A stretch of DNA of 20,000 bases from an uncultured virus (IMG/VR IMGVR_UViG_3300044731_002410) (lineage: Duplodnaviria; Heunggongvirae; Uroviricota; Caudoviricetes): the IMG/VR virus record IMGVR_UViG_3300044731_002410; one strand, given 5' to 3'. Numbering within the stretch: position 1 is the first letter of the stretch; every line of letters starts with the position of its first letter. Below are positions 1,213 to 20,000 of this stretch, one piece after another. The position numbers were made by a program, and so were the translations under genes. The notes under the pieces were generated by a model. It did not search any database, was not told the origin of the DNA, and saw nothing but the letters and a program-made list of their open reading frames with translations.

Positions 1213-1260
1213 TGTAAACCCGATCTTGAGCTTAAAGCCTGTGTCCCTACACTACCCGCA

Positions 1261-3618: not shown

Positions 3619-4094
3619 AGCGCAGCCTTTAGGTCGTTGTGCTTTGATTGGGATGCTGCGTGCTGTTCGTTGCGCAACCCATCAGTAAAGCCTGTAACAA
3701 TCACATCAATCAAGGTGCACCACTCATCAAAGCTGTAGTGCTGAAGATCGGTCTTTTGGATCGACTCGATATATTGGCCAGCTTGCAAGCTCGCATGGCG
3801 AAGCGCAGCTTGCTCAAAACGGTTGGGATCAATCATGCCTTTTTCCTTTGCAGCAAGGTCCATACAGGTCATGGAGCAAAGCGCAAGGACCGGTGTGTCA
3901 AGCTCAGCGCTCGATGACATTGCAGGCGTATAGCCAAAGCCTCGTGCGAAGCGTCTGCAAATGGCGCATAGCTTTGACTTCTTGGGTGCTCGTCTGATGC
4001 GTGCCTCGCTCGCTTGAGCCTGGGCGAGTAAAAGATCGAGCTGCGATGCAAAAGCTTTTGTCTCCATCACTGACATATACGGGTCGAGACACAC
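3615..4094 (-). CDS. Conserved phage hypothetical protein (DUF6511-like, with Cys motifs)
   Basis: CAICRRFARGFG...CSMTC followed by MIDPNRFEQAAL...GQYIESIQKTDL...EW. Stop overlaps the primase start (ATGA-type). True start uncertain. Confidence 0.65.
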   Translation of the reverse strand: MCLDPYMSVMETKAFASQLDLLLAQAQASEARIRRAPKKSKLCAICRRFARGFGYTPAMSSSAELDTPVLALCSMTCMDLAAKEKGMIDPNRFEQAALRHASLQAGQYIESIQKTDLQHYSFDEWCTLIDVIVTGFTDGLRNEQHAASQSKHNDLKAAL

Positions 4095-4161
4095 AAAATG
4101 CTCAGGTTACTGAAAAGCATTGAAGCGTTTTAGCCCACAAACAATAGGCAGCGCTTCACTT

Positions 4162-4183
4162 CTATAGTACTTAGTGATACAGT
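4162..4183 (+). promoter_or_regulatory. Putative TA operator overlapping an extended -10 element
   Basis: Imperfect palindrome ctatagtacttagtgatacag containing TG-a-TACAGT (4175-4183), ending 5 nt before the toxin ATG. No Shine-Dalgarno. Confidence 0.45.
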
Positions 4184-4188
4184 AATCC

Positions 4189-4575
4189 ATGGAGCGTAGC
4201 TTTAAAGTCAAGACCTTCGAGCGTTGGATGCGCAAGGCAGGCCTTACCGATGCCATGCTTAGAGTTGCCGTTGAGGAGATGTCTAGAGGGCTTATTGACG
4301 CAAGCCTTGGTGGTCATCTTGTGAAAAAGCGTGTCGCAAGAACCGGTTATGGCAAACGCGGCGGTTACCGGACCATCGTGGCAAAGAAGGCAGGTCAACA
4401 CTGGTTTTTTCTATTTGGATTTCAGAAAAACGATCGCTCTAATATCGATCAATTAGAGCTTAGAGTGTTGCAAGAGATCGGCGAGACATTCCTTGCCTTT
4501 ACAGACGCTGAGCTTAAGCATGCACTACAACGTGGTGAGCTACTGGAGATCATTAATGACAACCAAAAAGACTAA
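4189..4575 (+). CDS. Type II toxin, RelE/HigB family
   Basis: FKVKTFERW...GLIDASLGGHLVKKRVAR..GKRGGYRTI...WFFLFGFQKNDRSNI. Toxin-first arrangement overlapping an HTH gene. Confidence 0.88.
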   Translation: MERSFKVKTFERWMRKAGLTDAMLRVAVEEMSRGLIDASLGGHLVKKRVARTGYGKRGGYRTIVAKKAGQHWFFLFGFQKNDRSNIDQLELRVLQEIGETFLAFTDAELKHALQRGELLEIINDNQKD

Positions 4576-4876
4576 GAGCAGGATCTTGCAAGAGATGCAC
4601 GAAACTGCAACGGGACTTGCGCAATCAGGCCTCATCACTAAGCGCCGTCTAGCTGAACTCGAAGCGCTTTGTCAGATCGATGTAGGCGAGATGTCAGCAC
4701 AACAAATCAAGTCACTTCGTGAATCCGTTCAGGTAAGCCAGGCGGTACTTGCGGCGATTTTGAATACGAGCGTATCGACGGTTCAAAAGTGGGAAATTGG
4801 GGATAAACGCCCAAGTGGTCCTTCACTTAAGCTCTTACACCTCATCGAACGCAAAGGCATTGAAGCTGTTTTGTAG
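4556..4876 (+). CDS. HigA-like antitoxin, XRE-family HTH
   Basis: IKSLRE..VSQAVLAAILNTSVSTVQKWEIGDKRPSGPSLKLL. ATG 4556 has GGAG upstream and overlaps the toxin 3' end. Confidence 0.88.
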   Translation: MTTKKTKSRILQEMHETATGLAQSGLITKRRLAELEALCQIDVGEMSAQQIKSLRESVQVSQAVLAAILNTSVSTVQKWEIGDKRPSGPSLKLLHLIERKGIEAVL

Positions 4877-4878
4877 CG

Positions 4879-5775
4879 TTAATGCTCAAGCGCTAATTGC
4901 TGCGTAAAACCATCTGCTAGCCTGTATGCTCCACAGCACTCACGTTGTGCTGCGCTGCTCAGTGGCTCGTCATGGGCAAGACAGTGCCAGCCGCCATCGA
5001 TGGGTTTAACATGTTCACAGCTTCGGCAAGAACGCTCTGGCGCTTGATGGCCGTGACAAATCTCGCGGTGATCACACCACTTACACTGATACCAGCTTGG
5101 GTCGTTGCTTAAGCGCTCAGGGGGGCTCGGTGCAAAGATCACACGCTTTGCCTTATCAAGAAGGCCCTTTGCAATGGCAGCGTCGTATCGAACACGTTCG
5201 ATATAAATATCATCTGTGTCTTTGTTAACGCCCACGTAGAGCGCATCTTGAAGTGCCATCAAATGCATGTAAATTTGCATTTGTGCAAAGTGCATGGGTT
5301 TTGAGATACGCACACCCTTGGCAAGAAGCTCACGAAAGCTTGATGCGCTATGGGTTTTAAATTCCAGCACATGCCAGTGCTCGGGATCTTCAATAAGGCC
5401 TAGGCCCAGCGCATCAAGCGACCCACCAAAGTGCCCCCCAATCGCACTGACCCGGTACTGCCTGCCAGTTTCTGGATCAACATCCAACACGGTTGCGCCC
5501 GTAGCACGCAAATTTTGAACAAGGCGCGCCTCTTCTCGCATCCCCGTCTCAAATAAGCGAAGCACCCTACCCTGATGGAGCGTTCGCTTTGCCCAGCGAA
5601 AGTCATACCAAAGCGCACGTTCACAATCTTTGCCAATGATCGATGCACCAAGATGCGCTCGAAAACCATGATCGGCTTGCCGCTCATAGGCTTGAAAGAT
5701 CGCCTCACGCGTTGATGCTGGTGACTTTACCCAGTGGATGGGCTTTTCTTGAATGGATGTATCGCTTGCTTCCAT
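4879..5775 (-). CDS. PD-(D/E)XK exonuclease, Cas4/AddB-like with Fe-S-type cysteines
   Basis: LGASIIGKDCERALWY, GSLD...LEFKT, QMQIYM and CKWCDHREIC. Confidence 0.82.
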   Translation of the reverse strand: MEASDTSIQEKPIHWVKSPASTREAIFQAYERQADHGFRAHLGASIIGKDCERALWYDFRWAKRTLHQGRVLRLFETGMREEARLVQNLRATGATVLDVDPETGRQYRVSAIGGHFGGSLDALGLGLIEDPEHWHVLEFKTHSASSFRELLAKGVRISKPMHFAQMQIYMHLMALQDALYVGVNKDTDDIYIERVRYDAAIAKGLLDKAKRVIFAPSPPERLSNDPSWYQCKWCDHREICHGHQAPERSCRSCEHVKPIDGGWHCLAHDEPLSSAAQRECCGAYRLADGFTQQLALEH

Positions 5776-6159
5776 TTAGATGAGCTCCTTTTGACGCTGA
5801 TCAGCCTTTTCATCAACGGCTTGCATCACATCGCGCCAAACCTCATCACCCACCTCACGCCTTAATGCTGAAAAAAGTGCCTTAAGGTATGAGGGGTGAG
5901 GCTCAAGTGATCGAAGCCTGGCAAGCTCAAGGCTTACCTCGGTCACTTCGCGCTGTTTAGCGCGAAGTGCCGTTTTGGCTCGATGAAAGCGGTCAGGATC
6001 TACACCAAGTCGTAGCGACTGCCTTCGTATATCGTTTGTAGCTAAGCGCAGTTTGATCGAAGCAATCTCATCGCGCAGCACAGCAAGGCGCTTGCGACAG
6101 GCCTCGGTCGTCTTTGGAAGTGCGCGGCTTTGGGGTCCCGTTAAGCTGTAATTTTCCAT
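5776..6159 (-). CDS. Hypothetical helical/coiled-coil phage protein
   Basis: 127-aa ORF tightly packed in the operon, overlapping the upstream gene and abutting the downstream gene. Confidence 0.65.
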   Translation of the reverse strand: MENYSLTGPQSRALPKTTEACRKRLAVLRDEIASIKLRLATNDIRRQSLRLGVDPDRFHRAKTALRAKQREVTEVSLELARLRSLEPHPSYLKALFSALRREVGDEVWRDVMQAVDEKADQRQKELI

Positions 6160-6713
6160 GGCATTGGATTGGCAGATTGGGGTTGATGGGCTTGAGCAGA
6201 TGCGGCTTGAGAAGCTGAGGCCTGAGCGCCAGCTACCGAGACCTCTTGAGCCACGCTTGCATGTGAAGCACTCAGTGGTGCTACCACTTGTTGGACCATC
6301 AGTGATCGGGGCACGACTGGCGCGGATCTTGCGAAATAGCGAAGCGTGTTGGTCTCGCCAAAGCCCGCTTGGGATTTAATCCCAACATCCAAAATAAAGG
6401 GGATGTTGTGCAGCTCACTGGTTTCACCAACACCAGCTCTACCCGTTGCTCGGCAAATCGAAGCAAGTGAGCGGTTTGCCATCTCAACGGCTTGAGGGCT
6501 GCGGTTAACAATATTGAGCCGATCAAAGATCTTGCGGCCTTGTTGTGGGCCATCAAGTACGAGCATCTCAAAAAGAATGTATTGACCCGAGCCTTCTTTG
6601 GTGGGCAATAAATCGCTGCTTACGATCTGTACGTTATAGCGCCCAGCGGGCACAAGCGATGTCGATGCACCAGGTGCAGTGGCTGGATCAAAGTACTGGG
6701 GTAACAGTGCCAT
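6141..6713 (-). CDS. DUF669-like protein (putative phage ssDNA-binding protein)
   Basis: VPAGRYNVQI..S...TKEGSGQY...GRKIFDRLN...AVEMA...LASICRA, with a low-complexity tail ending PMPWK. Follows an AAA ATPase. Confidence 0.75.
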   Translation of the reverse strand: MALLPQYFDPATAPGASTSLVPAGRYNVQIVSSDLLPTKEGSGQYILFEMLVLDGPQQGRKIFDRLNIVNRSPQAVEMANRSLASICRATGRAGVGETSELHNIPFILDVGIKSQAGFGETNTLRYFARSAPVVPRSLMVQQVVAPLSASHASVAQEVSVAGAQASASQAASAQAHQPQSANPMPWKITA

Positions 6714-6753
6714 GGTGAGTGTCCTTTACAAGTGTTTTAGAAATGAGTATGGG

Positions 6754-7659
6754 TTAAGCCATTGCAGCTGCGCGTGGTGCGACAGCTTTTGGGATAGGCA
6801 TTGATTTAGGCGCAGCAGTTGCACTTGCGGCCTGAGCACTCTGAGTTCTTGAACCGATACTTCCAAGCTCAATGGGTTGGCTATCAAGCTCGCTCTCATC
6901 GGCAAGCATTGCGCGTAAGCTTTGAGGCATGGCTTGCGCAAACGCATGCCAGGCAAGCGGGAGCTCAGCAGGCAAGTTATAGCGGTTCTTCGCTAAGTAA
7001 GCAGGCCTTTCACTGGTATGCATGCGCCGCTCGCCCGTGCCGACTGCACGCGTTGCCTTTTTATTAAAGCCCGCATCGGCTTTGGTGGTTGTGATGTGAT
7101 AGTTAGCAAATAGCACGACATCCGAGTGCTCTTGCAAAAGCGCTGCAGCCCTTGCATGAAGCTTCACTTGATAGCGATCGTAGGGATCGTGCTCGGGGCT
7201 TTCGAACCGCTTAATGTCGGTGTGACCAATCTGTACGATCGTCATGCCTAAATCATTGCGAAGTGCATTAATGCCTTCGACATACTCACGCCAAAGATTT
7301 AAGGCAACCACATAGCCTTTGCCGTAGCCTGGGTCTTCAATCGTATTCCAACCATTATCACGACAGGCTTTCGACCAAATCAGTGGCTCAAGCCAATCCA
7401 CCGAATCAATCACAAGCGTGCGAAAGTCATGAGGCTGTGAGTAAAGCGTGGCAAGCGCATCCATCACTTGCTCAAAGGTCTTAGCAAGCGGAAAGTGCGA
7501 AAACTGAAGCGTTCCCATGCCGTCCTCGGTGATGATGAACACGGGCTTGAGTGACTCTGCAGCAAAGGTCGTCTTTCCCACACCGGCCACGCCATGAATC
7601 AAAATGCGCGGTGCTTTGGGCGATTCGTTATGGATGATGTTTGCAATCGATAAGGCCAT
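6754..7659 (-). CDS. AAA-family ATPase (AAA_24/Sak4-like phage recombination protein)
   Basis: Walker A HGVAGVGKTT, Walker B TLVIDS, GYGKGY and LAKNRY. GAGGAG upstream of ATG 7659. Confidence 0.85.
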   Translation of the reverse strand: MALSIANIIHNESPKAPRILIHGVAGVGKTTFAAESLKPVFIITEDGMGTLQFSHFPLAKTFEQVMDALATLYSQPHDFRTLVIDSVDWLEPLIWSKACRDNGWNTIEDPGYGKGYVVALNLWREYVEGINALRNDLGMTIVQIGHTDIKRFESPEHDPYDRYQVKLHARAAALLQEHSDVVLFANYHITTTKADAGFNKKATRAVGTGERRMHTSERPAYLAKNRYNLPAELPLAWHAFAQAMPQSLRAMLADESELDSQPIELGSIGSRTQSAQAASATAAPKSMPIPKAVAPRAAAMA

Positions 7660-7666
7660 GATCGGT

Positions 7667-8248
7667 TTACTCCTCAATGTGATGGGTTAGCGTGTGGTGG
7701 TCATTACTTGCAAGCGATTGGGTTGCCCCAATGGGTTCAATCTCGTAGGTGGGCTTTGCCGCTTTCACCGTGCGTGCAGGCTCAAAGAGCTTTTTGATCG
7801 CAGGTGGCCAGGCCTGATAGCGGTGCTCTGGAATTTGATACGCCACATCAACAAAGTGCGTTGGGTCCTCGCCTTGAGCAAGCAGTTGCGCCACCGCATC
7901 TTTAAGTTTGGCCTGGTCATAGCTTGGCCGCTTGGCGAGCGTTGCAATCACGACATGATCGCCTTCAGTAAGACGCACCGTACCGGTGGTTTTTCCTGCG
8001 GCGATCCGCAATGCTTGTGCACGCAGCGCAAAGCGCTGATCCATGGCGCGATGAAGGATCCCTTCGTAGTGAGTAATAGAGCGCTTAATATGTGCGATGC
8101 GGTCACAAAGCGTTGCAAGATTTGCCATTGAAAGCGCACTCAGATCGGCTTGGGTTAAATCACCGATCCAATCAAGTAACTCACCTGGCATGGTGTGCAT
8201 GACCGCGCCTGGTGTAGCTTCAGAAACTACGGGTTTTGTATCGAACAT
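7667..8248 (-). CDS. Conserved phage hypothetical protein
   Basis: 193-aa ORF in the operon with GKTTGTVRL...YDQAKL...YQAWPPAIKKLFEPART, a pattern typical of genes preceding AAA_24 ATPases. Confidence 0.7.
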   Translation of the reverse strand: MFDTKPVVSEATPGAVMHTMPGELLDWIGDLTQADLSALSMANLATLCDRIAHIKRSITHYEGILHRAMDQRFALRAQALRIAAGKTTGTVRLTEGDHVVIATLAKRPSYDQAKLKDAVAQLLAQGEDPTHFVDVAYQIPEHRYQAWPPAIKKLFEPARTVKAAKPTYEIEPIGATQSLASNDHHTLTHHIEE

Positions 8249-8267
8249 GGTGCAGGTCTCCCGGGAT

Positions 8268-8660
8268 TCAGTGGATCGATTCCAAGGGGGTACGAGGTTC
8301 CGCTTCTCGTACCCGAATCAACAAGCCAGGAGCTTTCACGGACTGGACTGATCGAACTGCGATGTACTGATAGCGATTTATCGCATGCCGGTGGCTCAAG
8401 AGGTGAGCCAGTCCCAACTCCATGGCGATCCAGGCACGCTTGGCCACAGCATCCAGTGCTTGGCGTTGCGCTTTTGGCAACATTGAAAAGCTCTCTGAGC
8501 GGTCCACGAGCAGATGACCCTCGTGGTATTGGATCTGATCGCCAATGCAGGCCTCAGCAATCCAATCGCAAAAGGCAGCTTCAGTAAGCGGCTTAGGTGG
8601 GACCCAAATAGGGCCAAGAGGCATTGAGCGCATCAGTGCGCCTTCAACGAGAGCATTCAC
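8268..8660 (-). CDS. Conserved phage hypothetical protein (first gene of the replication operon)
   Basis: 130-aa ORF, GTG start with TAGGAG upstream; FCDWIAEA..GDQIQYHEGHLLVDR. Confidence 0.7.
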   Translation of the reverse strand: MNALVEGALMRSMPLGPIWVPPKPLTEAAFCDWIAEACIGDQIQYHEGHLLVDRSESFSMLPKAQRQALDAVAKRAWIAMELGLAHLLSHRHAINRYQYIAVRSVQSVKAPGLLIRVREAEPRTPLESIH

Positions 8661-8694
8661 TTTTTGGTTTCTCCTACAACATGGGGCTTTGATG

Positions 8695-8728
8695 ACATAT
8701 AGGGGTTTTGCGTTGGAAATGACTCAGG
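8695..8728 (-). promoter_or_regulatory. Bipartite promoter-like motif, copy B (CCTGAGTCA-N12-AACCCCTATATGT)
   Basis: Minus strand reads cctgagtca-tttccaacgcaa-aacccctatatgt. Its TGA is the sigma-like gene's stop codon. It points into the replication operon. Confidence 0.75.
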
Positions 8729-9311
8729 AGACTCGAATGCCAAACATGCGCATGTGCATCTTCAATGCGTCAAAGCGTCGAGTGAAACTTACGCGGTGAA
8801 GACCCAAGGCGTCCTTTGCTGCACTTTTGCTTTGGTGTGTGAGAAGGTGCGCTGCAAGCTCGGAAAGCTCCGCAGGCAGTGATTGGCTTGCGCGCTCCCA
8901 GTCAAGACCAAGCGCAGTCAGGGCCTCATCGTCTTCCTGGTATGGGCACTGCGTGCCACCAAGCATTGCGCCATCATTGTTGGCTGCGACCCGATGATCA
9001 AAGGGAAGAAAGTGCATCTCATGCCGTCTGATCCCTTTGAGAAGCTCCCCAATGCTTTGACGGCAAATAATCTCCGCAAAGGTACGCGCCGATGCACGTG
9101 AGCAATCAAACTTGTGCTCTTGCACAAGCACTAAAACCACCATGTCTTGTTCTAAATCTTCGCAATCGGCAATACTGAGCGCATATTGCTTGCGAGCCAT
9201 TAAGGCATGAAAGCGCGCCGTTGCTTTGGCAGCTAGCGCATACTGAGGATCAGGTCTCACTTGGTCTGCGCACTTGGCAGTTTGCGTTGTGGGGGTCTGA
9301 GGGGTTGTCAT
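8724..9311 (-). CDS. ECF/sigma-70-like RNA polymerase sigma factor (phage-encoded)
   Basis: Region-2-like ADCEDLEQDMVV...FDCSRASARTFAEII and region-4-like SLPAELSELA...SKSAAKDALGLHRVSFTRR. Start uncertain (9311 or 9326; ORF open to 9458). Confidence 0.7.
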   Translation of the reverse strand: MTTPQTPTTQTAKCADQVRPDPQYALAAKATARFHALMARKQYALSIADCEDLEQDMVVLVLVQEHKFDCSRASARTFAEIICRQSIGELLKGIRRHEMHFLPFDHRVAANNDGAMLGGTQCPYQEDDEALTALGLDWERASQSLPAELSELAAHLLTHQSKSAAKDALGLHRVSFTRRFDALKMHMRMFGIRVS

Positions 9312-9374
9312 GGGCTTAAAGGGCATTTGTGAAAGATCAACAAAATTAGGTAAATACTTAATCTTTATGGGCTT

Positions 9375-9395
9375 AAAAAGGCACCCGCAGGTGCC
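9375..9395 (-). terminator. Putative intrinsic terminator after the immA-like gene
   Basis: Minus strand ggcacc-tgcg-ggtgcc followed by TTTTT, about 35 nt downstream of the stop at 9431. Confidence 0.55.
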
Positions 9396-9430
9396 GTTAT
9401 CTGAACTACAATTTTCTTTTGCTCTAAAAT

Positions 9431-10225
9431 CTAAATCGCCTTCGCGCTGCTTTCCCATAAGCCATAGCGGGCAAACCTCGTACGGATAAAGCTTGGGCTC
9501 ACACCAAAGATGAGCGATAAGTGACCGATCAAATCAAAGAAGTGCCCTTCAACGTCATGGCGCTCACAAACGATGTTTGGCTCACCGGCACCAGGGCCCT
9601 CAAGTAACATGTCTTCAAAGTCCAATCGAAAGCCGTGCTTAGGGGCAAGCTCTTCGATCATGTGCATTAAAAGATTGCGTGGGACTAGCAAGCACCCCAT
9701 GAATTGGTTGGCTCGCCACTCGGATCGCAACTCTGCATCGCTAAGCCCACTTAAGGACTTGGTGCACTCGCCCTCTGTAACGCGATAAGCCATAACAGGC
9801 TCGGCGCAACCCAAGGCTCGCTGCGCCTGGCGCGAGCCGATCAGCACTGGCCCATCAAAGACAGCGTGACCGAGCTCATGGGCAAAAGTTGAAAGCACGG
9901 TCTCTGGGGTGAAGGTTTCGTCAACGGGCGACACGCGCACATTGACTGCGTCTTCTTCAATCTCAGGGATGAACTCAAAGATCCCAGATACCTTCTCGCC
10001 TTGCGAATCAAAAAGCGTTCGGGACAGATCACTCCAAATCTCATAGCTAACACCATTGACGCAAAGCGCTTCGACGCGCGAAAGATCACGCACACTGAGT
10101 GCCACCCTGCCCTCTAAGCCCAGTTCAACGCGAAAGGCGTTGGCCACTTGCTCGATATCGCGATTGGTCGTGCGTGCAAACGGTGCAAGGTCTTGGTGCC
10201 GGTAGCTGATCGTTGCGGTAGTCAT
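9431..10225 (-). CDS. ImmA/IrrE-family metallopeptidase (anti-repressor)
   Basis: TFAHELGH (HExxH) and EWRANQFMGCLLVP. Adjacent to an XRE repressor. Confidence 0.88.
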   Translation of the reverse strand: MTTATISYRHQDLAPFARTTNRDIEQVANAFRVELGLEGRVALSVRDLSRVEALCVNGVSYEIWSDLSRTLFDSQGEKVSGIFEFIPEIEEDAVNVRVSPVDETFTPETVLSTFAHELGHAVFDGPVLIGSRQAQRALGCAEPVMAYRVTEGECTKSLSGLSDAELRSEWRANQFMGCLLVPRNLLMHMIEELAPKHGFRLDFEDMLLEGPGAGEPNIVCERHDVEGHFFDLIGHLSLIFGVSPSFIRTRFARYGLWESSAKAI

Positions 10226-10270
10226 GATGCTTTTGCGTCTACAGTAGGTTTACGTCTTTAGGTTTAAATC

Positions 10271-10618
10271 TCAGGCCTTATCTTTTCGGTGCTGCCGTCG
10301 GTAGTAGCGAATGACGGTTTCAAGTGTCTTGGGGTCAGCCATATCAGGTGGCAAACGGTTGGCTCTTATGAAGTAGTCATCGGCGTTCTCACCGAGCACT
10401 TGCGCAGCACGCTCAATCAGCTCACTCACCGGTGGCTTTTCTTTGTTCGTTTCGACGCACGACCAGTAAGCCGGGCTGACATCGATGCGTTTGGCGAAAT
10501 CCTTCAAGCTGATCTGCGCAGCAAGCCGCTTGGTACGCACGAAATCGCCAAAGCTGCCCTCATCTGCAAGCACTGCTTCGGTCAGCAATAATTTGGCGTT
10601 TGGTGAACGGTTAACCAT
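10271..10618 (-). CDS. XRE-family HTH repressor
   Basis: FGDFVRTKRLAAQISLKDFAKRIDVSPAYWSCVETNKEKPP. Confidence 0.85.
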   Translation of the reverse strand: MVNRSPNAKLLLTEAVLADEGSFGDFVRTKRLAAQISLKDFAKRIDVSPAYWSCVETNKEKPPVSELIERAAQVLGENADDYFIRANRLPPDMADPKTLETVIRYYRRQHRKDKA

Positions 10619-10749
10619 ACTGAGCCTCGTTCGGGCTAAAGGTTTACAAACAAGGCAAATGGGATAGAAAAACAGCGGAAAGATTCGTTACTGGTGATTT
10701 ATACAGTACTTCGTAAAACTCCGCAAGTTAGCTCTTACCGTTTGAGTAG

Positions 10750-10783
10750 CCTGAGTCAAATGGCAATCAAAACCCCTATATGT
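10750..10783 (+). promoter_or_regulatory. Bipartite promoter-like motif, copy A (CCTGAGTCA-N12-AACCCCTATATGT)
   Basis: cctgagtca-aatggcaatcaa-aacccctatatgt, about 30 nt upstream of the excisionase start. Confidence 0.75.
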
Positions 10784-10814
10784 GCTCTATCGGAACACTT
10801 TGTAGGGGCGCTAC

Positions 10815-11036
10815 ATGACCACAAACAACACCACATTCCTTGATCTCGATGAGCTACGTTGGCTAACAGGCTGGGCTCAAAAATCAAAGCAAATCGCGCA
10901 GCTACGACGCATGGGCATTCCCTTTCATGTGAATGGCCTTGGACTACCGATCGTCGCCCGGAGCGTCATTGAAGGCACACGCACAAAGAATCAAGAGCCC
11001 AATACACGCTGGAGGTCAGCAATCGATGGGACGTAG
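10815..11036 (+). CDS. Excisionase-like protein (DUF4224 type)
   Basis: FLDLDELRWLTGWAQKSKQIAQLRRMGIPFHVNGLGLPIVAR. Overlaps the integrase start. Confidence 0.8.
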   Translation: MTTNNTTFLDLDELRWLTGWAQKSKQIAQLRRMGIPFHVNGLGLPIVARSVIEGTRTKNQEPNTRWRSAIDGT

Positions 11037-12078
11037 CCGAACTAAAAACTTAAATCTCCCGATGCACATGAAGGCTCGGGAGCGCGCAAGCGGAACCTAT
11101 TACTACTACTGCATCGACGGTAAGGAGTATCCGCTCGGTAAAGACCTTGTTGAAGCGGTCATGCGATGGGCGGATCTCTCCAGCGGTAAGATTCCAGTGG
11201 AGTCCAAGTCGCATATCACCTTTCGTTACGTAGCCGAGCGTTATGCGCAGCAAGTCATTACTAAGAAACAATATCGCACTCAAAAAGATAACTTATATGA
11301 ACTTGAATACCTCTATAAGTTTTTTGATAATCCACCAGCGCCACTCGATCAGATTGAACCGCATCACATTGCGCGCTACCGTGACTGGCGTGTCGTAACA
11401 AGCAGCACCAAAGAGATTGCACTACTGAGTCATATTTGGAATTGGGCTCGCGAACAGGGCTTCACACGCATGCCAAACCCTTGCGTTGGCGTGCGTCGAA
11501 ATCGAAGTAAAGGCAGAAACGTATACATTACCGATGAGATGTTTGAGCGGGTCTATGCATGCGCAGATGAGCCCACCCGAGACGCTATGGATATTGCATA
11601 CCTTGCGGGTCAACGCCCTGCTGACTGCCTTCGATTTACTGAGCACCACATCAAAGATGGCGCCTTGTGGGTAACGCAGCGCAAGACCGGTACAAGACTT
11701 AGAATACAAATTGTTGGCAAACTCAAAGACGTCATTGATCGCATTATGGCCCGTAAACAAGCTATCGATCGTGGTGAGACAGGAACGATTCGCGGGCGGC
11801 GTAAAACACTTGTGAGAAGTCTTTCTTTGATCGTCAATGAGTACGGTCAAGCACTCAGTGCGGCTTCGCTTGATAACCGATTTGAGAAAGCGAGAATCGC
11901 CGCTGGCGTTGATCCAAAGGTCTTTCAGTTTAGAGATTTGAGAGCAAAGGCTGCTACAGATATTGAAGCACTTGAGGGGATGGAACGTGCGCAACGCCTC
12001 TTGGGTCATGCTGATGCATCCATGACAAAACTTTATGTACGCAATCGACTTGGTAAGCTTGTGATGCCTACCAAATAA
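11026..12078 (+). CDS. int: Tyrosine recombinase/integrase of element 1
   Basis: GQRPAD (R), QRKTG (K), FRDLRAKA, LLGH and TKLY (Y). ATG 11026 has GGAGG upstream. Confidence 0.93.
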   Translation: MGRSRTKNLNLPMHMKARERASGTYYYYCIDGKEYPLGKDLVEAVMRWADLSSGKIPVESKSHITFRYVAERYAQQVITKKQYRTQKDNLYELEYLYKFFDNPPAPLDQIEPHHIARYRDWRVVTSSTKEIALLSHIWNWAREQGFTRMPNPCVGVRRNRSKGRNVYITDEMFERVYACADEPTRDAMDIAYLAGQRPADCLRFTEHHIKDGALWVTQRKTGTRLRIQIVGKLKDVIDRIMARKQAIDRGETGTIRGRRKTLVRSLSLIVNEYGQALSAASLDNRFEKARIAAGVDPKVFQFRDLRAKAATDIEALEGMERAQRLLGHADASMTKLYVRNRLGKLVMPTK

Positions 12079-12153
12079 CAAAATATCGTGATATTGTTTG
12101 AAATATTGAGAAAAAGTTAAAAATAAGGGAAATTAAAGGAATTATATAACTCA

Positions 12154-12166
12154 CAACATCCTGATT
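12154..12166 (-). promoter_or_regulatory. IHF-like binding site in the left att arm
   Basis: Minus strand AATCAGGATGTTG fits WATCARN4TTR, in an AT-rich stretch beside the att core. Confidence 0.45.
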
Positions 12167-12186
12167 TATATATTTTTGATAGTGCC

Positions 12187-12231
12187 CTGTTAATCCGTAG
12201 GTCCCTGGTTCGAGCCCAGGTCGGGGAGCCA
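12187..12231 (+). tRNA. 3' half of tRNA-Asn(GTT); att-site duplication, not an intact gene
   Basis: CTGTTAA anticodon loop, T arm CCTGG-TTCGAGC-CCAGG and end GGGGAGCCA. Upstream bases (gtgcc) cannot pair with tccgt, and no D arm or 5' acceptor strand is present. Confidence 0.9.
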
Positions 12232-12235
12232 ATAA

Positions 12236-12248
12236 AATCAATGACTTA
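12236..12248 (+). promoter_or_regulatory. IHF consensus site in the right att arm
   Basis: AATCAATGACTTA matches WATCAAN4TTR. Confidence 0.55.
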
Positions 12249-12279
12249 CACGATTTTTTGTAGGTCTCTGAGTGCGGTC

Positions 12280-12355
12280 CTGTGTAATTTCTGTGTAATC
12301 GCGTCAGGACATGTAGAGAACTATCGGGAGCTTTGTGTAATTCCAGATTACACAA
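12280..12355. repeat. TGTGTAAT repeats; probable integrase arm-type sites
   Basis: ctgtgtaat at 12280 and 12291 (11-bp period), ttgtgtaat at 12333, and an inverted attacacaa at 12347. Confidence 0.65.
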
Positions 12356-12382
12356 AAACACTTCGGAAGCCCCGGTTCAAGT

Positions 12383-13642
12383 TTACGCAGCGTACTTTTG
12401 CTCGGGTTCTCTCGCGCTTCGATTGCGCTCCCCATCAGCTTCGTCAGACTCTCGATTAGCGCCACCACCGTACCGATCCGCAAGCTTTGACATGGCCGCT
12501 TGGATGTGCGCGCCGTTTTGATGGCTATACCGCTCGACCATCGACAAGTTCTTGTGGCCACTGATACGCTTAACTGTAGGCAAGTCCACGCCAGCCTGAA
12601 CCAGGTGCGTGATTGCGGTGTGACGTAATGTGTGTCGCAGCACTTGCTTGGGGTCTAAACCGGCTTCGATCACACAGCGCTTAAAAGGCTTATCAAGGTT
12701 TACCGTTCGCCCATCTTTTGCCCCATGCGACGCAAATAGCCATGGCGACTCATGCGAAAGCGATCCCATGTAAGTTTTCAAATACTCTCCGAGCCCGACC
12801 GTGATGGGCTGCTGGCGCGCGCCAGCCTTAGCCTTTGGAATATGGATGATTAAGCGCTCTAAATCGATATGCTCACGTTTGATGGTGAGGATTTCGGTCT
12901 TTCTCATGGACGTTTCCAGCGCTATCCGAATGAACGGATAAATCTGCCGGCTCTGATCCCTGCCTGCAGCCTCAAGCAAGGCCGCAACCTGTTCGACGGT
13001 CAGGTACATGATGCGGCCATTATCTTCGCGTAAGCGCTTGATGACCGCTGGCCGATGATCGATCCAACCCCACTCAATGCCCATGGTGAAAAGGTGCGAG
13101 AGTGCAGCAAGCTCGCGGTTAATCGTCGCAGGCTTGGTCTGACCCGAATAGATGGGTTTGCCTCCAGGTCCATTGGGGCGTTTAACCTTGGCAGTACTTC
13201 GAAAGGCTTTGTAGCGCTCAACATCATGGGTTGTAATTTTTGAGAGCGGCGTTGCCCCAAAAAACGGCACAAGGTGATCCCGGAATCGATAGGCCTTCAT
13301 CTGCCGATCCTTTCCGCCAGTTTCAGCCATCCGCTTTAGATATTCCTGCGCTGCTTCAGCCAAACTCATTGCTACTTTTCGCCCCGCAGGCAGGTTAAGA
13401 CGCTGCGCCTTGGCATCCTGGCGCAAGGTCTCGATGATTTCCTCAGCCTGCGTTCGCGTTGTCCCTTCAGACTCTCGCCCAACGATGCGATGAATCCGCT
13501 GCCGATCAACCATCACGTTGATCGAAAAGACGCCATCGCCTGAAGGCTCGCGAGTAAACGTGATGCCATGTTCAGTGATGGACTGGCCACGTTCGAGCTT
13601 TCGCATCTCATGACGAGATAACTTTAAAAATGATTTGCTCAT
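12383..13642 (-). CDS. int: Tyrosine recombinase/integrase of element 2
   Basis: TSMRKTEIL (R), KAKAG (K), HTLRH, SGHK and VERY (Y). AAGGAG 7 nt before ATG 13642. Confidence 0.93.
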   Translation of the reverse strand: MSKSFLKLSRHEMRKLERGQSITEHGITFTREPSGDGVFSINVMVDRQRIHRIVGRESEGTTRTQAEEIIETLRQDAKAQRLNLPAGRKVAMSLAEAAQEYLKRMAETGGKDRQMKAYRFRDHLVPFFGATPLSKITTHDVERYKAFRSTAKVKRPNGPGGKPIYSGQTKPATINRELAALSHLFTMGIEWGWIDHRPAVIKRLREDNGRIMYLTVEQVAALLEAAGRDQSRQIYPFIRIALETSMRKTEILTIKREHIDLERLIIHIPKAKAGARQQPITVGLGEYLKTYMGSLSHESPWLFASHGAKDGRTVNLDKPFKRCVIEAGLDPKQVLRHTLRHTAITHLVQAGVDLPTVKRISGHKNLSMVERYSHQNGAHIQAAMSKLADRYGGGANRESDEADGERNRSAREPEQKYAA

Positions 13643-13654
13643 GATCAATCTCCT

Positions 13655-14970: not shown

Positions 14971-15035
14971 CGATTTAACTTTTAAACCTGCCTCCCTACG
15001 CAACATCGTTTTCCACCCTCTCAAAAGGAACTCTC

Positions 15036-15686
15036 ATGACGGGATTTCAATCTTCCATAGCAAGTAGCCCGGCGCAACGACCTGCCATACCATCGGCAAA
15101 TACGTCGCAATTCAATCCTGAGCGCATCGACCCGATTGAGGTTCGTGCTGTGATTGCCTACCCATTTATTACGGAACCCGACCCCAATTCGGGAGGCAAA
15201 TATGGCGCTTTGTTCCTCATTACCGAAGCTGAAGACAAGGCTCAACTCGTGACGCTTCGCGATCAAGTTGCCGAGCACACGTTTCGATCACGCCAGCTAC
15301 CCGCTGGTGCACACGATCCGCTTCGCCGTGCCGATGAGCGCGCTCCAAATGGCGACTTTGCGTTCAGACACCCAGCCTTTCGCATCCCTGATGCAATGGT
15401 AATTAGGGCTAAATCAGGCTATCGACCTAACTGTGTCTGGGGTCCTCAAGAGGCACCGATTGAGCCCTCGGAAATTCATGGCGGCGATCATGTCGTCGTT
15501 GAAATTGCCGCTTATGGTTATAACAATCAGAGCCGTGGTGTGGGTTTGAGTTTGGGCCGTATCTGGCTCATTCGCCGAGGCGACATTCGGATCGAGCGGG
15601 GTGCCAACGCCGCTGCGAGCGTTCGACGTCTGGACCGCTCAAAGCTTCATTTTGGCGCAATGGATCACGAATCCGATGCAGCGTGA
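15036..15686 (+). CDS. ssDNA-binding protein, T7 gp2.5/DUF2815-like
   Basis: IAYPFITEP...KYGALFLI...DPLR..D...IRAKS..RP...EIHGG...AYGYNNQSRGVGLSL. AAGGA RBS. Confidence 0.78.
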   Translation: MTGFQSSIASSPAQRPAIPSANTSQFNPERIDPIEVRAVIAYPFITEPDPNSGGKYGALFLITEAEDKAQLVTLRDQVAEHTFRSRQLPAGAHDPLRRADERAPNGDFAFRHPAFRIPDAMVIRAKSGYRPNCVWGPQEAPIEPSEIHGGDHVVVEIAAYGYNNQSRGVGLSLGRIWLIRRGDIRIERGANAAASVRRLDRSKLHFGAMDHESDAA

Positions 15687-15717
15687 TGGTAAGGGTCCCT
15701 CGATGGCCCTTGCCATC
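15685..15717 (+). other. Stem-loop after the SSB gene (mRNA-stabilising or attenuating hairpin)
   Basis: gatggtaagggtc ... ggcccttgccatc forms a 13-bp stem with two G-U pairs. No U tract follows. Confidence 0.45.
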
Positions 15718-15824
15718 GGGGGATCTTTCGCCCTAGCCACTGACTCATCTCGATACCTAACTGGCATGCTCAGCTATTGATTTGGCTTACTCAGCTATCG
15801 ATTCGCCACTTTTTATAACCTATC

Positions 15825-16397
15825 ATGACCTCTGAACTGCAAGCCAGAAGCTGCCGCACAAAGCTCCGCTCCTGGCAAGAATACGCAGCGGCAAGGCTTC
15901 TGATACATCCCTATTTGCTTTTAGGTGCTCAGCCAGGTGCAGGCAAAACCATCACGACCCTGACTGCACTTGCCGATGCGCCAAAGCGCACCTTACTCGT
16001 TGCGCCTGAGGTGATTCTCGATACCGTGTGGTCGCAAGAAGCTGCGCGCTGGCAGCACACGGCCCATTTGCACTTTGCGATGGCGCACACCCTTAGCGGC
16101 CACAAACGCGAGGCGACTTGGTTTTCCAAGATGGGTGATCTCGTAACTTGTACGCCAGACACCTTGGTTCGATTTCTTGAATCGGTCTCTAAACACGAAC
16201 GACTTCCTGTGGCAAGGCTTGTGATTGATGAGTCGCAGCTCTTTAAAAACCCTGCTGCCACCCGCACGCAGGCTTTGCTTGCGCTCTCAGAGCACCTTCC
16301 CACCTGGCTCTTATCAGGCACACCCACACCGAACGGTGTACTTGATGCCTGGGCACCAGGCTATCTCTTATCCCAAGGAGAAGCGTTTTGGCACTAA
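15825..16397 (+). CDS. SNF2-family helicase, N-terminal ATPase part
   Basis: Walker A PGAGKT, LLVAP, Walker B LVIDES and motif III LSGTP. Ends prematurely at TAA 16397. Confidence 0.8.
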   Translation: MTSELQARSCRTKLRSWQEYAAARLLIHPYLLLGAQPGAGKTITTLTALADAPKRTLLVAPEVILDTVWSQEAARWQHTAHLHFAMAHTLSGHKREATWFSKMGDLVTCTPDTLVRFLESVSKHERLPVARLVIDESQLFKNPAATRTQALLALSEHLPTWLLSGTPTPNGVLDAWAPGYLLSQGEAFWH

Positions 16398-17323
16398 GTG
16401 TTATTGCTGACTTTTATAACTGGCGCAAGCGGCACTTTGTTGCGATCAATGAGCATCGGTGGCTTGCAAGGGATGCAGGCACTGAAGCGCTGATCCGCAA
16501 GCAGCTTGCCCGCTATGCCTTTGCCATCGAACTGGATCAGAGCGGTGCTTCAATCCCTGAGCCCCTTTATCAGCGTCTTCACTTTCGCTGGGATAAAGCA
16601 CATCGTGAGCGCCTGCAAGGCTTACTTTCCGATGGGGCATTCACCCTGCCCCAAGGCGCACGTATGGCGCCACAAAGTGATGGGGCAAGGCTTTCCATGC
16701 TTCGCCAACTAAGCTCGGGGTTTATCTATGAGCATGCATCGCAACCTGAGCAAGGAAACGAGCATGGGGCTGAGCAGGAAGCATTGGCAGAGCGATCAGA
16801 TGCCTGTCAGTGGCTGTCGCAAGCTCGAATCCGAGCACTTTCAGACTGTGTGGATGGCGCTCAGGGTCCAGTGCTTGTGGCTGCATTTTTTCGTGCGGAA
16901 GTTTCAGCCCTTCTTAGCCACTTCGGTGCGAGGGCAAAAGCCATCAGTGGTCAGACGCAAGCCGCTGAGCGCTCAAAGCTTATTGATGCCTGGAATCGCG
17001 ATGAGATTAAAGTCCTCATCGGCGTTCCCGCTGCCATGGGTCATGGCATTAATTTACAGCTCGGTTCGTGTCGCACCCTCGTTTGGTTCACCCATAGTTT
17101 TGACTGGGCGCAGCGCGCTCAAATGAATGCCCGCTTAATCCGTTCCGGGCAAACCAAAGCGGTCTCGATCATCGATATGGTTGCCGATTGCGGCATTGAT
17201 GCTCCGGTGTTGCGTGCCCTTGAACAAAAGCAAGCTGGGGAAGCTGCCATGTTTGAAGCGATTGAGGCAGCGCAAGGGGTAACACATCAGTTATCCGCTC
17301 TTGGTACTGGAGCGCTGGCATGA
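16388..17323 (+). CDS. SNF2-family helicase, C-terminal part (-1 frame relative to the N-part)
   Basis: IDAWNRDEIKVL, GHGINLQ and QMNARLIRSGQ (motifs V/VI). TTG start with AAGGAG 7 nt upstream. Stop overlaps the polymerase start (ATGA). Confidence 0.8.
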   Translation: MALSVIADFYNWRKRHFVAINEHRWLARDAGTEALIRKQLARYAFAIELDQSGASIPEPLYQRLHFRWDKAHRERLQGLLSDGAFTLPQGARMAPQSDGARLSMLRQLSSGFIYEHASQPEQGNEHGAEQEALAERSDACQWLSQARIRALSDCVDGAQGPVLVAAFFRAEVSALLSHFGARAKAISGQTQAAERSKLIDAWNRDEIKVLIGVPAAMGHGINLQLGSCRTLVWFTHSFDWAQRAQMNARLIRSGQTKAVSIIDMVADCGIDAPVLRALEQKQAGEAAMFEAIEAAQGVTHQLSALGTGALA

Positions 17324-18588
17324 GGACGCGCTGCTGCTATGACTTTGAGATCGCACCAAATGTGGCTTTGTTGGGGATCAAAGCACAAGGTGAACCTGCC
17401 GAGCACTTGGTTATAACTGAGCCCATAACGGCTGAGATTGCCACTGAGATCGATGCACGATTAAGTGATCGTGAAGTCACAGGTTATAACAATCTAGGCT
17501 TTGATACCTACTTATTGGATCGATTGTTGCATGGCGCAGGCCCTCAGACACTCTTTGAGCTATCGAGTGCCATCATTCAAGCTAAGGGGCCTGCCTGGAT
17601 GGTGGCTCGTGAGCATGGCGCACAGTCAAGTGGTTTTGATGAGCTTGACCTTATGCACTACACCCCGCGCGGCAGACTTAAGCAATACGAAGCGCGTCTG
17701 GGGCTTGCCATTGAAGATTTGCCCTTTGATCCCACCCAAGCGCTTGACTCATCGCAGCTACCCACCCTTGTCGCCTATTTAGAACATGATCTGCTTGCCA
17801 CAGAGACGCTGCGCGAGGCGGTTGATAGTGACGTAAAGGCTCGAGAGATTCTAGCCTCACTTTTTGGCGTGGAAGGTTTGCGGCGAAAAACCGCAGCCAA
17901 TGTGGCAGCAAGCATTATTGTGAGCGAGTACCTGCTTGAGCGACCGGACTTAATGCTTTCCGATGTGCGGCATGCCGCAGCTGCCATGCGCAACACGCAC
18001 TTTGCCTTTGAAGTACCCCCTTGGGTACTCGATGGTATCGCCGGCACCCTTGCCTTTGATATCGCTCAATCGATTGAAGGTACCGTCTTTGAAGTGATCG
18101 ATGGTGTGCGCCAGGCGCCTGATCGAGCCTGGCCTAAGGATATCGTGCTTGATGCATCCGATGGGTTAATGGCAAGTTTTGGGCTTGGTGGGATTCACAC
18201 TCAAGATAGTGCTTCTCGGTATAGCGGTCTAAGTTTTGATGTCGCATCGCTTTACCCCAACATCATCATGCATCCAGCCTGTACGCCTGCGCATTTGGAT
18301 GAATCACACTTTCATGCGGTTTATAAGCGACTCATTGATCGGCGCATGCAGGCTAAGCGCAGTGGCGATAAGGCAACCTCCGATGCCTTAAAGCTTGTGC
18401 TTAACGCTTGCTTTGGTGCTTTTAACTATCCCTACTCGCTGCTCTATAGCCCTCAAGCGTTTTTAACCATCACCGTAAGCGGCCAACTCTGCTTACTTGC
18501 CCTTGCTGATCGTATTCAGCGGCTTGGGCGCGATGAAAGAGCAGGCAAAGAAGCTCTCGCCGGTAAAGGATTCGTTCATGAGCCATGA
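17320..18588 (+). CDS. Family-B DNA polymerase, N-terminal part (3'-5' exonuclease plus motifs A and B)
   Basis: ExoI YDFE, ExoII YNNLGFD, ExoIII YLEHD, motif A FDVASLYP and motif B KLVLNACFG. Motif C is absent from this ORF. Confidence 0.85.
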   Translation: MRTRCCYDFEIAPNVALLGIKAQGEPAEHLVITEPITAEIATEIDARLSDREVTGYNNLGFDTYLLDRLLHGAGPQTLFELSSAIIQAKGPAWMVAREHGAQSSGFDELDLMHYTPRGRLKQYEARLGLAIEDLPFDPTQALDSSQLPTLVAYLEHDLLATETLREAVDSDVKAREILASLFGVEGLRRKTAANVAASIIVSEYLLERPDLMLSDVRHAAAAMRNTHFAFEVPPWVLDGIAGTLAFDIAQSIEGTVFEVIDGVRQAPDRAWPKDIVLDASDGLMASFGLGGIHTQDSASRYSGLSFDVASLYPNIIMHPACTPAHLDESHFHAVYKRLIDRRMQAKRSGDKATSDALKLVLNACFGAFNYPYSLLYSPQAFLTITVSGQLCLLALADRIQRLGRDERAGKEALAGKGFVHEP

Positions 18589-20000
18589 CCGCACACGTGT
18601 TGTGTCACTTAATACGGATTCGGTCACGCTTCAAGTTGCAAGGGGTGATGAGCAAGCGGTCAACGAGATCATTGCCGCATGGGAGGCGCAGTTTGGCTTT
18701 CAGATGGAGCGCACCGAGTTACTCGATCATCGTGCACTGAATATCAATAACTATATCGAGCTATCCCAAGAAGATGGCAAGGCGGCACAAATCAAAAGCA
18801 AAGGTGCACTTGCTCATGCACCAGGTATTGCCGCCGATCACGACCGCTTAATTGTGGCCCAGGCCGTTGGGGCCTGGATGCGTGAAGGCACACCGATTGA
18901 GCAAACCATTCGTTCAGCCATTGATGCGCGGGAGATCTTGCGCTTTACCGAGATGCGATCGGCACCCTCGGGTGCTCTTTTGTTGGATGCCAAGCCCATT
19001 GGGCGAATCTGTCGTGTGTATCGATCAACCCGCATCGATTTACCGGTACTTACCCGTGCAGCGACAGCGAAAGCTTCAGCACAGACCCTGGAAGCTGGCT
19101 TTGCCGTGCTCAAAGGTACACATTGGCCAGAGGCGGATGATCTTGATGAAGCCTGGTATGTCAACCAGGCCAAGCTTTTGATCGCTCAAACAAGTATTGC
19201 TTATAACCCTTTCATGAATGCCAAAGCGAAGGAGCTTGAATCGTTGGGGCTTCGTGTGATGGCTCGGGGCGGTGCGGCGACAAGAGCAGGATCTGATGGC
19301 GAACTTGATGCTCATCACTGGGTTCAGGCGGTCGGCCGCAATGTATCGGGTGATGAAGCACTTGGCGTGCGATTGACGACTGGCAAAGGCTCAGCAGTAG
19401 GCAAAGCCTTCATTGCAGTCATAGGACCACTTCACCATCCCGACTCGAAGGTACTTACCGTGACAGGTCCGCATGGTGAGCACCTTGAGATTCACGCGCT
19501 CAGTCCCTCGCAGGCTAAAGCCATCGCGCAAGGCAACCCCGACTCAGTAGGCATTGAGCTTCAAAGCTCAGGTGTGGTCGAAGTACTCAATCCCAGCACA
19601 GGCACTCACTTTGCCCTCGATGGAAACATCACGCCAAGGTTTGAAGCGCTGATAGAGGCAGAGGTGACACCAACACAGCGGACGGCCTCTCATGATGACT
19701 CAAGCCTTGATAACGATCAGTTTCTTCAAGTGATGTTTGGTGACGATTTACCGTTTGCCTTTGTGTGCTCGCATCAGATCCCACCCGATCACCCTGATGA
19801 GAGCAAGCGCTTAGGGATCTGGCAAGGCGGACCGTTGCAATACGCCAAAGGTTTATATCAATTAGCAGAGCGCCAAAACTACACCTGTGTAAGCGCCTTC
19901 ACACCGGATGATGAAGGTATCTACAGGCGTCAACAGTCGCATTTCTTAGGACTCTACTTTGTTGTACTTGATGACATCGGTACCAAGGTAGCTATCGACC
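18578..20000 (+). CDS. PolB C-terminal part (motif C, thumb) fused to a primase-like domain; partial, runs off the window
   Basis: Not in the ORF track because it has no stop. Manual translation: MSHDRTRVVSLNTDS...NINNYI...IKSKG...DLDEAWYVNQA, then NDQFLQVMFG...NYTCVSAF.PD..G.YRRQ..HF..LYFVVLDDIGTKV. AAAGGA 7 nt before ATG 18578. Confidence 0.82.
   Translation, partial: MSHDRTRVVSLNTDSVTLQVARGDEQAVNEIIAAWEAQFGFQMERTELLDHRALNINNYIELSQEDGKAAQIKSKGALAHAPGIAADHDRLIVAQAVGAWMREGTPIEQTIRSAIDAREILRFTEMRSAPSGALLLDAKPIGRICRVYRSTRIDLPVLTRAATAKASAQTLEAGFAVLKGTHWPEADDLDEAWYVNQAKLLIAQTSIAYNPFMNAKAKELESLGLRVMARGGAATRAGSDGELDAHHWVQAVGRNVSGDEALGVRLTTGKGSAVGKAFIAVIGPLHHPDSKVLTVTGPHGEHLEIHALSPSQAKAIAQGNPDSVGIELQSSGVVEVLNPSTGTHFALDGNITPRFEALIEAEVTPTQRTASHDDSSLDNDQFLQVMFGDDLPFAFVCSHQIPPDHPDESKRLGIWQGGPLQYAKGLYQLAERQNYTCVSAFTPDDEGIYRRQQSHFLGLYFVVLDDIGTKVAID

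Follow-up and report, generated by a model that had tools for sequence, protein, structure and literature searches.

Known split and fused replicases

Family-B DNA polymerases (PolBs) divided between two genes, and replicases in which a helicase, a primase and a PolB are fused, are each known. Here we analyse a locus that appears to unite the two features, found on a stretch of 20,000 nucleotides (nt; the window) of IMG/VR record IMGVR_UViG_3300044731_002410, an uncultured virus of the Caudoviricetes, in which two overlapping open reading frames, ORF1 and ORF2, carry the N- and C-terminal pieces of a PolB and the second piece continues into a primase. Among the fused systems, GP55 of Lactococcus phage 1706, a 'four-in-one' replicase, performs de novo DNA synthesis (PMC12205980; PMC4889955); in the accessible parts of these reports it is a single chain of 1317 amino acids (aa) running from a helicase through a PriS-like archaeo-eukaryotic primase (AEP) and an alpha-helix domain to a PolB with exonuclease. 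Our locus likewise joins helicase, AEP primase, PolB and exonuclease, but with the polymerase first and on two genes and thus, compared by architecture and not by sequence, outside the GP55 architecture. Pas55 of Actinoplanes phage phiAsp2 is also a polymerase-primase-helicase fusion, with a helicase 30.6% identical to residues 899-1188 of the ORF2 family, but it is built from a superfamily 3 (SF3) helicase, a DnaG primase and a family-A polymerase (PMC4889955, accessible part).

Natural two-gene PolBs have been described in several groups, again as far as the portions of the reports available to us go. In phage PhiKZ, DNAP-N and DNAP-C form a stable 1:1 complex in which motifs A and C belong to different proteins (PMC13648687, preprint), an arrangement shared by ORF1 and ORF2; however, the PhiKZ proteins come from genes gp82 and gp50, are cut inside a large palm insertion before the fingers and, in that portion, have no primase or helicase fused to them, whereas our locus is cut after the fingers (motif B), has overlapping genes and carries the primase-helicase on its C-piece. 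The split gp43 (43A/43B) of the T4-related phages 25 and 44RR yields proteins that co-purify and are active (PMC2988022), and PolB3 is split in Methanobacteriales (PMC4104785). These splits are tied to inserted untranslated sequence, a homing endonuclease or intein loss, with no fusion in the parts seen, whereas the break described here holds about 25 variable residues and no remnant.

The closest named family is the unsplit PolB of Queuovirinae and relatives (phrog_1252), represented by Pseudomonas phage JG054 and 32-33% identical to our pieces. The JG054 enzyme shares the NTD motif C and the C-terminal D-x-D-x-x-WY, but consists of one 726-aa chain to which neither a primase nor a helicase is attached; the window's two pieces abut within 2 residues on it. 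On the primase side, RepB' of plasmid RSF1010 and the S-2L PrimPol AEP (structures 3h20, 3h25 and 6zp9) share with the ORF2 family the AEP fold (Z 11-15) and apparently a DD...D pattern, a motif II Gln and the following Arg, and membership of the Pfam family RepB_primase is borderline. RepB' is a plasmid primase that stands alone and continues into a helix bundle, whereas the ORF2 domain is preceded by half a polymerase and followed by an element resembling a zinc module and by a helicase.

Neither the literature nor deposited phages yielded this particular combination of parts, in this order and with this split site. Specifically, a tblastn search of 50,697 phage records with a whole ORF2-family protein returned 322 matching records, none of which covered at least 80% of the query, the best covering at most 30%. 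The literature consulted held no split PolB cut between motifs B and C with its C-piece fused to a primase-helicase, and a survey of bacterial AEP families (PMC5862659, supplements aside) does not mention PolB in the part available.

A polymerase gene in two pieces

The features of the locus are as follows.

17320-18588, plus strand: ORF1, gene for the PolB N subunit (422 aa), with exonuclease, palm motif A, fingers motif B and a variable 19-residue tail after ADRIQRLG.
18565-18570, plus strand: Shine-Dalgarno-like AAAGGA, 7 nt before the ORF2 ATG.
18578-18588, plus strand: 11-nt overlap, from the ORF2 ATG (18578-18580) to the ORF1 TGA (18586-18588), the proposed translational-coupling site.
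18578-19220, plus strand: ORF2 residues 1 to about 214, PolB palm motif C, KSKG and a thumb ending in DDLDEAWY.
19190-19711, plus strand: domain X (linker), ORF2 residues about 205-378, conserved within the family (AlphaFold2 predicted local distance difference test, pLDDT, 83).
19712-19999, plus strand: first 96 residues of the AEP primase domain (ORF2 379-474), up to motif I (DD at 19970-19975), the gene being cut by the window end.

For comparison we used seven loci: the window, five further loci designated L003, L004, L008, L009 and L036 (the last from a Comamonadaceae metagenome-assembled genome), and L037 from the isolate Limnohabitans radicicola JUR4, with identity to the window dropping to about 55-60%. 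The DNA of the relatives was taken from viral contigs and genomes; a first genome-contig scan with ORF2 as query gave no relative.

Family-B exonucleases are recognised by the motifs Exo I (DxE), Exo II (Nx2-3[FY]D) and Exo III (Yx3D). In ORF1 these correspond to D8/E10, N57...F61 D62 and Y153...D157, invariant in 7/7 of the N-pieces. The polymerase patterns tested were DxxSLYP for motif A, Kx3N[SA]x[YF]G for motif B and DTDS for motif C. Motif A of ORF1 reads D307 VASLYP and motif B K358 LVLNACFG, with D307, Y312, K358, N362 and G366 invariant in all seven. ORF2 supplies the remainder of the catalytic region, namely motif C as NTDS at 18611-18622 (residues 12-15), NINNY (55-59), KSKG (73-76) and DDLDEAWY (187-194). 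All of these lie where the sequence-only reading had put them, with motifs A and B in 17320-18588 and motif C, NNY, KxKG and DLDxxWY in a second frame. The segment SLNTDS (ORF2 residues 10-15) is the same in all seven loci; Asn thus replaces the first Asp of motif C, and since the unsplit JG054 enzyme also reads NTD (SANTDG), NTDS is a trait of the family and not a sign of decay.

The phrog_1252 'DNA polymerase' profile (663 positions) aligned with ORF1 over positions 52-446 (E 2.5e-67) and with ORF2 over positions 449-651 (E 2.2e-30); because the two stretches are successive, the two proteins are consecutive pieces of one enzyme. In tblastn, 907 phage records annotated as DNA polymerase were matched. 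On the JG054 chain, ORF1 aligned up to residue 464 and ORF2 from residue 467, and between these nearly abutting parts the window has 19 tail and 6 head residues, so that the roughly 20 extra codons reported from sequence alone at the break are real.

Modelling of the pair, proposed in the same reading, gave for ORF1 and ORF2 residues 1-221 a predicted complex with a score of 0.83, against 0.00 for the best of three controls; the mark used for this score was reached by 116/157 solved complexes and by 2/215 mismatched pairs. Contact agreement over three runs was at least 91% and the partner pLDDT at least 88. In the predicted interface, ORF1 residues 291-312 (motif A strand) and 388-406 (the helix that follows motif B) pack against the ORF2 motif C hairpin (5-21) and residues 31-56, as they do inside single-chain PolBs. 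The prediction supports binding of the two pieces.

The ORF1/ORF2 junction and programmed frameshifting

The ORF2 frame lies at +1 relative to ORF1 and is open from 18479, following a stop at 18476-18478; this open stretch, the AAAGGA and the 11-nt overlap agree with what had been read from the letters. The same +1 offset was found in 7/7 loci, the ORF2 ATG overlapping the ORF1 stop by 11 nt in three of them and by 8 nt in four. A purine-rich site stands 5-9 nt before the ATG (counted on the printed sequences) in six loci, and L037 has just a weak GAAAG 9 nt upstream. The cut falls past motif B and 6-10 residues ahead of the motif C strand. Across the family, 9-28 residues of ORF1 tail and 6-10 residues of ORF2 head occupy the break; they are variable, and in the linker between the last conserved ORF1 residues and the ATG the length differences are multiples of 3.

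Samples of the same kind contain two linker alleles (window 18535-18578): one of 42 nt, as in the window, and one 30 nt longer, of 72 nt, as in L003. DNA run X2 has the longer allele, as does an RNA-library contig (X15) reaching across the ORF1-ORF2 junction. Contigs from RNA libraries over the junction were also considered as proof of transcription and rejected as such, since they do not show it.

The break is found well beyond these loci. Fifty-one protein clusters with 50-91% identity are N-pieces of 404-432 aa, and the next relatives beyond them are unsplit polymerases only 27-29% identical. In 36/51 clusters the N-piece ends in [HYND]V, the imprint of the overlapping ATGTT. Correspondingly, the start of the C-piece lies 6-22 residues ahead of motif C in 33 of 34 representatives and reads MF in 22/34.

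The alternative that survives best, although we regard it as improbable, is programmed +1 frameshifting at the end of ORF1, which would give a single chain of about 1700 aa with polymerase, primase and helicase, either in place of the separate products or together with them. It would account for the +1 offset in every locus, and with the ORF1 stop located in the opening 3-4 codons of ORF2, shifting there would cost only 2-3 residues; a natural in-frame form of 1666 aa also exists. A shift of the prfB type needs a conserved slippery codon and a closely spaced upstream Shine-Dalgarno sequence. However, the codons before the stop vary by locus (CCA TGA, ACA TGA, GTT TAA, GTT TGA) with no slippery sequence in common, and the distance of the purine-rich site suits initiation at the ATG, not a prfB-type shift. 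Moreover, the ATG itself is kept in all seven loci and imprinted in the 36 cluster tails noted above, and in L009 the ORF2 frame is open for just 3 codons ahead of it.

Two other origins of the break were considered and rejected. Since inteins are far longer than about 25 residues, the 9-28 plus 6-10 variable residues leave no room for intein halves, and a homing-endonuclease origin likewise finds neither room nor remnant there.

ORF2 beyond the polymerase

ORF2 runs without a stop to base 19999 through NY..VSAF..YRR..LYFVVLDDIGTKV. Its continuation was read from L003 (86% identical) and L004 (67%), in which the protein has about 1240-1280 residues from the ATG, the range in relatives being 1223-1280 aa. 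The order in these relatives is PolB C-part, a weakly AEP-like domain (domain X), a RepB'/PrimPol-like AEP primase, a zinc module and a DUF5906-type helicase, and the same architecture was present in 33 further representatives. No relative has a stop between the polymerase and primase parts, in agreement with the fusion proposed by the sequence-only reading, which had also placed a primase after the polymerase correctly but had missed domain X between them and the helicase beyond the window.

The domain from ORF2 residue 379 onward is clearly predicted to have the AEP fold, of the RepB'/PrimPol-like kind. The AlphaFold2 model of the L003 domain (pLDDT 86) matched 6zp9_A in Foldseek at E 1.2e-7 and RepB' at about 1e-4, and VIA-align gave Z 15.2 against the S-2L PrimPol 6zp9 (root-mean-square deviation, rmsd, 3.1; 175 residues aligned) and Z 11.8 and 11.2 against RepB' 3h25 and 3h20. 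Together with the Pfam matches to PF16793 (RepB_primase), which at E up to 1 include 29/42 family members, these fold matches support the earlier recognition of a RepB'-type AEP. When five members were rescanned singly against the cut-off of 24.3 bits, P0019 (25.8) and P0044 (25.6) passed and P0008, P0021 and P0036 scored 20.7-23.8. A search of PDB sequences with the ORF2-family profile gave a chance hit alone (Plexin-D1, E 0.13), as did the AEP domain by itself.

In RepB' the catalytic residues are D77, D78, D134 and R145 (PMC8567376, in the part seen), and Gln in motif II is typical of RepB'-like enzymes according to the accessible text of PMC5862659. Across 42 sequences of the ORF2 family, D535, D536, D599 and the motif II Gln Q565 are invariant and R607 is nearly so; they seem to stand in the order and spacing of the RepB' set, although the sequence searches gave no alignment to 3h20 that would match them residue by residue. 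After the AEP domain, a Cys/His module bears a weak likeness to primase zinc-binding domains (Z 4.3-4.8). The helicase part, a putative P-loop NTPase of SF3-like type that lies beyond the window, was matched by phrog_19930 (E 1.9e-26) and by phrog_29234, has the consensus Walker A MAGSGKT and Walker B VVVFDN, and gave sub-threshold DUF5906 matches in 27/42 members.

Domain X may be AEP-like, an assignment that we make with low confidence from its model. All of the top 8 VIA-align matches were AEP domains, at Z 4.8-6.3, which is within the range of chance arrangements; the best was 1ro2_A (Z 6.3, rmsd 3.8, 119 aligned). Foldseek found no match at E <= 0.001, and hhalign detected no similarity between domain X and the family's own AEP profile (probability 0.1%). 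A phmmer search of 1.84 billion representatives returned only two matches, both repetitive tail-fibre-like proteins; this blank is weak because the family's own members were also missed. Domain X may be a decayed second primase domain. It carries conserved GGAA, RNxSGD and GEIH motifs and no canonical AEP acidic motif.

The AEP domain, whose best structural match is a PrimPol, together with the NTDS in place of DTDS, could suggest another division of labour, in which the polymerase part of ORF2 is a docking remnant that holds ORF1 as an exonuclease or accessory protein, or the AEP itself synthesises as a primase-polymerase, the enzyme not being replicative. We consider this still less probable than frameshifting, because the unsplit JG054 polymerase reads NTD too, all other catalytic residues are invariant in both pieces and, as described below, strong purifying selection acts on the two.

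Selection on both pieces and the reality of the break

The ratio of nonsynonymous to synonymous substitution rates (dN/dS) was 0.07-0.12 for ORF1 and 0.10-0.15 for ORF2 in 4/5 comparisons, with dS up to 1.6. The value for the closest ORF2 pair, window and L003, was 0.32 at a dS of just 0.16, so that 7/8 comparisons over both ORFs gave 0.07-0.15. As judged from these ratios, purifying selection acts on both pieces.

Contigs from two other DNA runs, X1 and X2, cross 18423-18649 and 18506-18649, respectively, with 0 differences, and the exact ORF1 protein was present on 7 contigs. A pseudogene produced by a recent inactivating mutation, or an error of sequencing or assembly, might be suspected from a single-base change of frame amid an otherwise single-chain enzyme family, but is hardly conceivable, because the same break recurs in 51 N-piece clusters and in 7/7 loci, the most distant of them about 55% identical, dN/dS is about 0.1 at dS of about 1 for both pieces, and the contigs of the two other runs show no difference across 18423-18649. 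The split is therefore real, old and selected. Of the two possibilities left open by the sequence-only reading, a large fusion broken by an indel thus falls away, the break being conserved and identical in contigs of other runs, and the heterodimeric PolB tethered to a primase gains support from the 7/7 loci, 51 clusters and 33/34 C-pieces, from selection and from those contigs.

Divergent contigs of runs X1, X15 and X16, which have 7-8 other differences per approximately 140 nt, lack one base at 18197, within ORF1. The gap could arise from the alignment of a variable stretch, or these contigs may represent a broken variant.

Re-fused and variant relatives

One lineage has joined the two genes again and encodes a single chain of 1666 aa. 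Its members, P0021, P0113, P0115 and P0117, have one in-frame linker in common (...ERVRPPQVQDKGVSVFVTAPSSETRVV...), and Val takes the place of the former start Met of ORF2. Identity between this lineage and the split locus L036 is 81%. In the 90% cluster to which it belongs, 10/14 members are split N-pieces, and a search for longer relatives of ORF1 returned this fused 1666-aa cluster only.

Free-standing primase-helicases that start just ahead of the AEP domain also exist (e.g. P0036-P0047), and the fusion therefore probably arose when the end of the polymerase gene plus domain X was joined onto a downstream primase-helicase gene. A distant relative, P0049 (1326 aa), retains the split start, the polymerase C-part, domain X and the AEP. 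Its AEP is preceded by a long repeat rich in His and Asp, and where the helicase region would usually lie, the C-terminal half is different.

A probable two-protein replicase

The explanation that we favour, and hold to be very probable, is a PolB made as two polypeptides, the C-piece being extended by an AEP-like domain, an AEP primase, a zinc module and a helicase. In this scheme, the N subunit (ORF1, 422 aa) would carry the proofreading exonuclease, palm motif A and the fingers, and the C subunit (ORF2, about 1270 aa in relatives) would open with the motif C palm strand and the thumb. Judging from the junction sequence, translation of ORF2 would start at its own ATG, probably by ribosomes just finishing ORF1 (translational coupling). 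As in the predicted complex, the two pieces may unite by completing one palm sheet, and by analogy with SF3 helicases the helicase part may form a ring. One assembly could then unwind DNA, lay primers and pass them to the polymerase on the same chain. Most of a replication machine thus probably sits on two proteins, and self-priming by this replicase, which the sequence-only reading had put forward, would follow from such an arrangement.

Several observations weigh against this explanation. For the polymerase itself, Pfam PolB models scored below their curated cut-offs on ORF1 (PF00136 and PF03175; 18.8 against 23 and 18.0 against 25.8 bits) and neither of them matched ORF2. The complex score may just recall solved single-chain PolBs, since the predicted interface is the same as in those structures, and the prediction used shallow alignments of 7 rows each. 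At the junction, the uniform +1 offset is also expected from a programmed +1 frameshift, the existence of the 1666-aa chain implies that a fused product works, the window's subgroup has further in-frame starts upstream of 18578 (an ATG at 18533 and others), and gene callers picked some of these upstream starts (P0003 and P0006). For the region beyond the polymerase, the window stops at ORF2 residue 474, inside the primase domain, so that the remainder is taken from relatives 67-86% identical; a Pfam scan of P0001 gave no hit, and the DUF5906 scores of 19-19.6 bits are under the cut-off of 27.6.

A more elaborate version of the two-protein replicase, which as a whole we think rather unlikely, would make the split itself functional. 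A helicase ring would offer six primases and six half polymerases as docks, to which a free N-subunit would load and from which it would leave, giving exchangeable polymerase cores with a stoichiometry set by translational coupling. Domain X would then be a decayed second primase that takes the primer at the AEP site and passes it to the polymerase, and the split SNF2 helicase gene described below would reflect a lineage-wide habit of coupled half-genes.

Genomic context

The element is a tailed prophage or temperate tailed phage of freshwater betaproteobacteria, and ORF1 and ORF2 are part of its replication module. In relatives, RusA and then small and large terminase genes lie downstream of ORF2, and related viral contigs are 40-47 kb. 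The earlier description as an integrative element is to be corrected accordingly to a tailed prophage. The neighbouring genes relevant here are as follows.

12383-13648, minus strand: tyrosine integrase, at the left end of the prophage; the same gene stands at the start of L003 and L004.
Between the integrase and the single-strand DNA-binding protein gene in the listed order: excisionase-like regulator, a prophage gene.
15036-15686, plus strand: Enc34/gp2.5-like single-strand DNA-binding protein (SSB; PF10991, E 1.4e-9; phrog_112).
15825-17323, plus strand: SNF2-type helicase in two overlapping genes, N-lobe 15825-16397 and C-lobe 16388-17323.

The SNF2 gene is broken between the N-lobe (SNF2 domain) and the C-lobe (Helicase_C), with a -1 offset, and the split is kept in 7/7 loci. 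The SNF2 junction is an ATGA overlap in four relatives and a TTG start behind AAGGAG in the window's subgroup. The split SNF2 helicase is a second conserved gene fission within the same module. Four replication ORFs thus form a chain of overlaps over 16388-18588, with 10 nt between the SNF2 N- and C-pieces, 4 nt between the SNF2 C-piece and ORF1, where the ORF1 ATG overlaps the preceding stop as ATGA at 17320-17323, and 11 nt between ORF1 and ORF2. This chain suggests one coupled translation unit that would set subunit ratios.

In L004, an extra exonuclease gene (phrog_69; 2363-3139) lies between the excisionase-like gene and the SSB gene, and the ORFs listed or scanned in the window and in L003 include no exonuclease gene at that position. 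A second phage-like module occupies the left of the window (1-12078) and has its own integrase (10933-12078, plus strand), as well as repressor-like genes, a Sak4-like annealing protein, an SSB, a Cas4-type exonuclease, a RuvC-like resolvase and a 785-aa primase (1261-3618, minus strand). With this integrase and that of the prophage placed back to back, the two may be separate elements inserted next to each other. IMG/VR record G001 corresponds to window 1-13453 and extends further leftward. No tRNA gene was found within the window, and megablast of window 15000-20000 against deposited phages gave no match.

Implications

In this natural and widely conserved case two polypeptides would together form the active site of a polymerase, the cut falling at a new point in the loop that joins the fingers helix to the motif C strand; the naturally re-fused lineage provides a control for what such a split costs or gains. 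The locus would add a third layout to the few known helicase-primase-polymerase replicases, with an order opposite to that of GP55, and therefore bears on how primers are handed over in the replisome. A compact set of two proteins that may unwind, prime and copy DNA is also of practical interest for primer-free amplification. The stretch occurs in 20 runs of 17 studies, all of freshwater or river samples, and because the family is common in lake and river metagenomes, it matters for the biology of freshwater phages.

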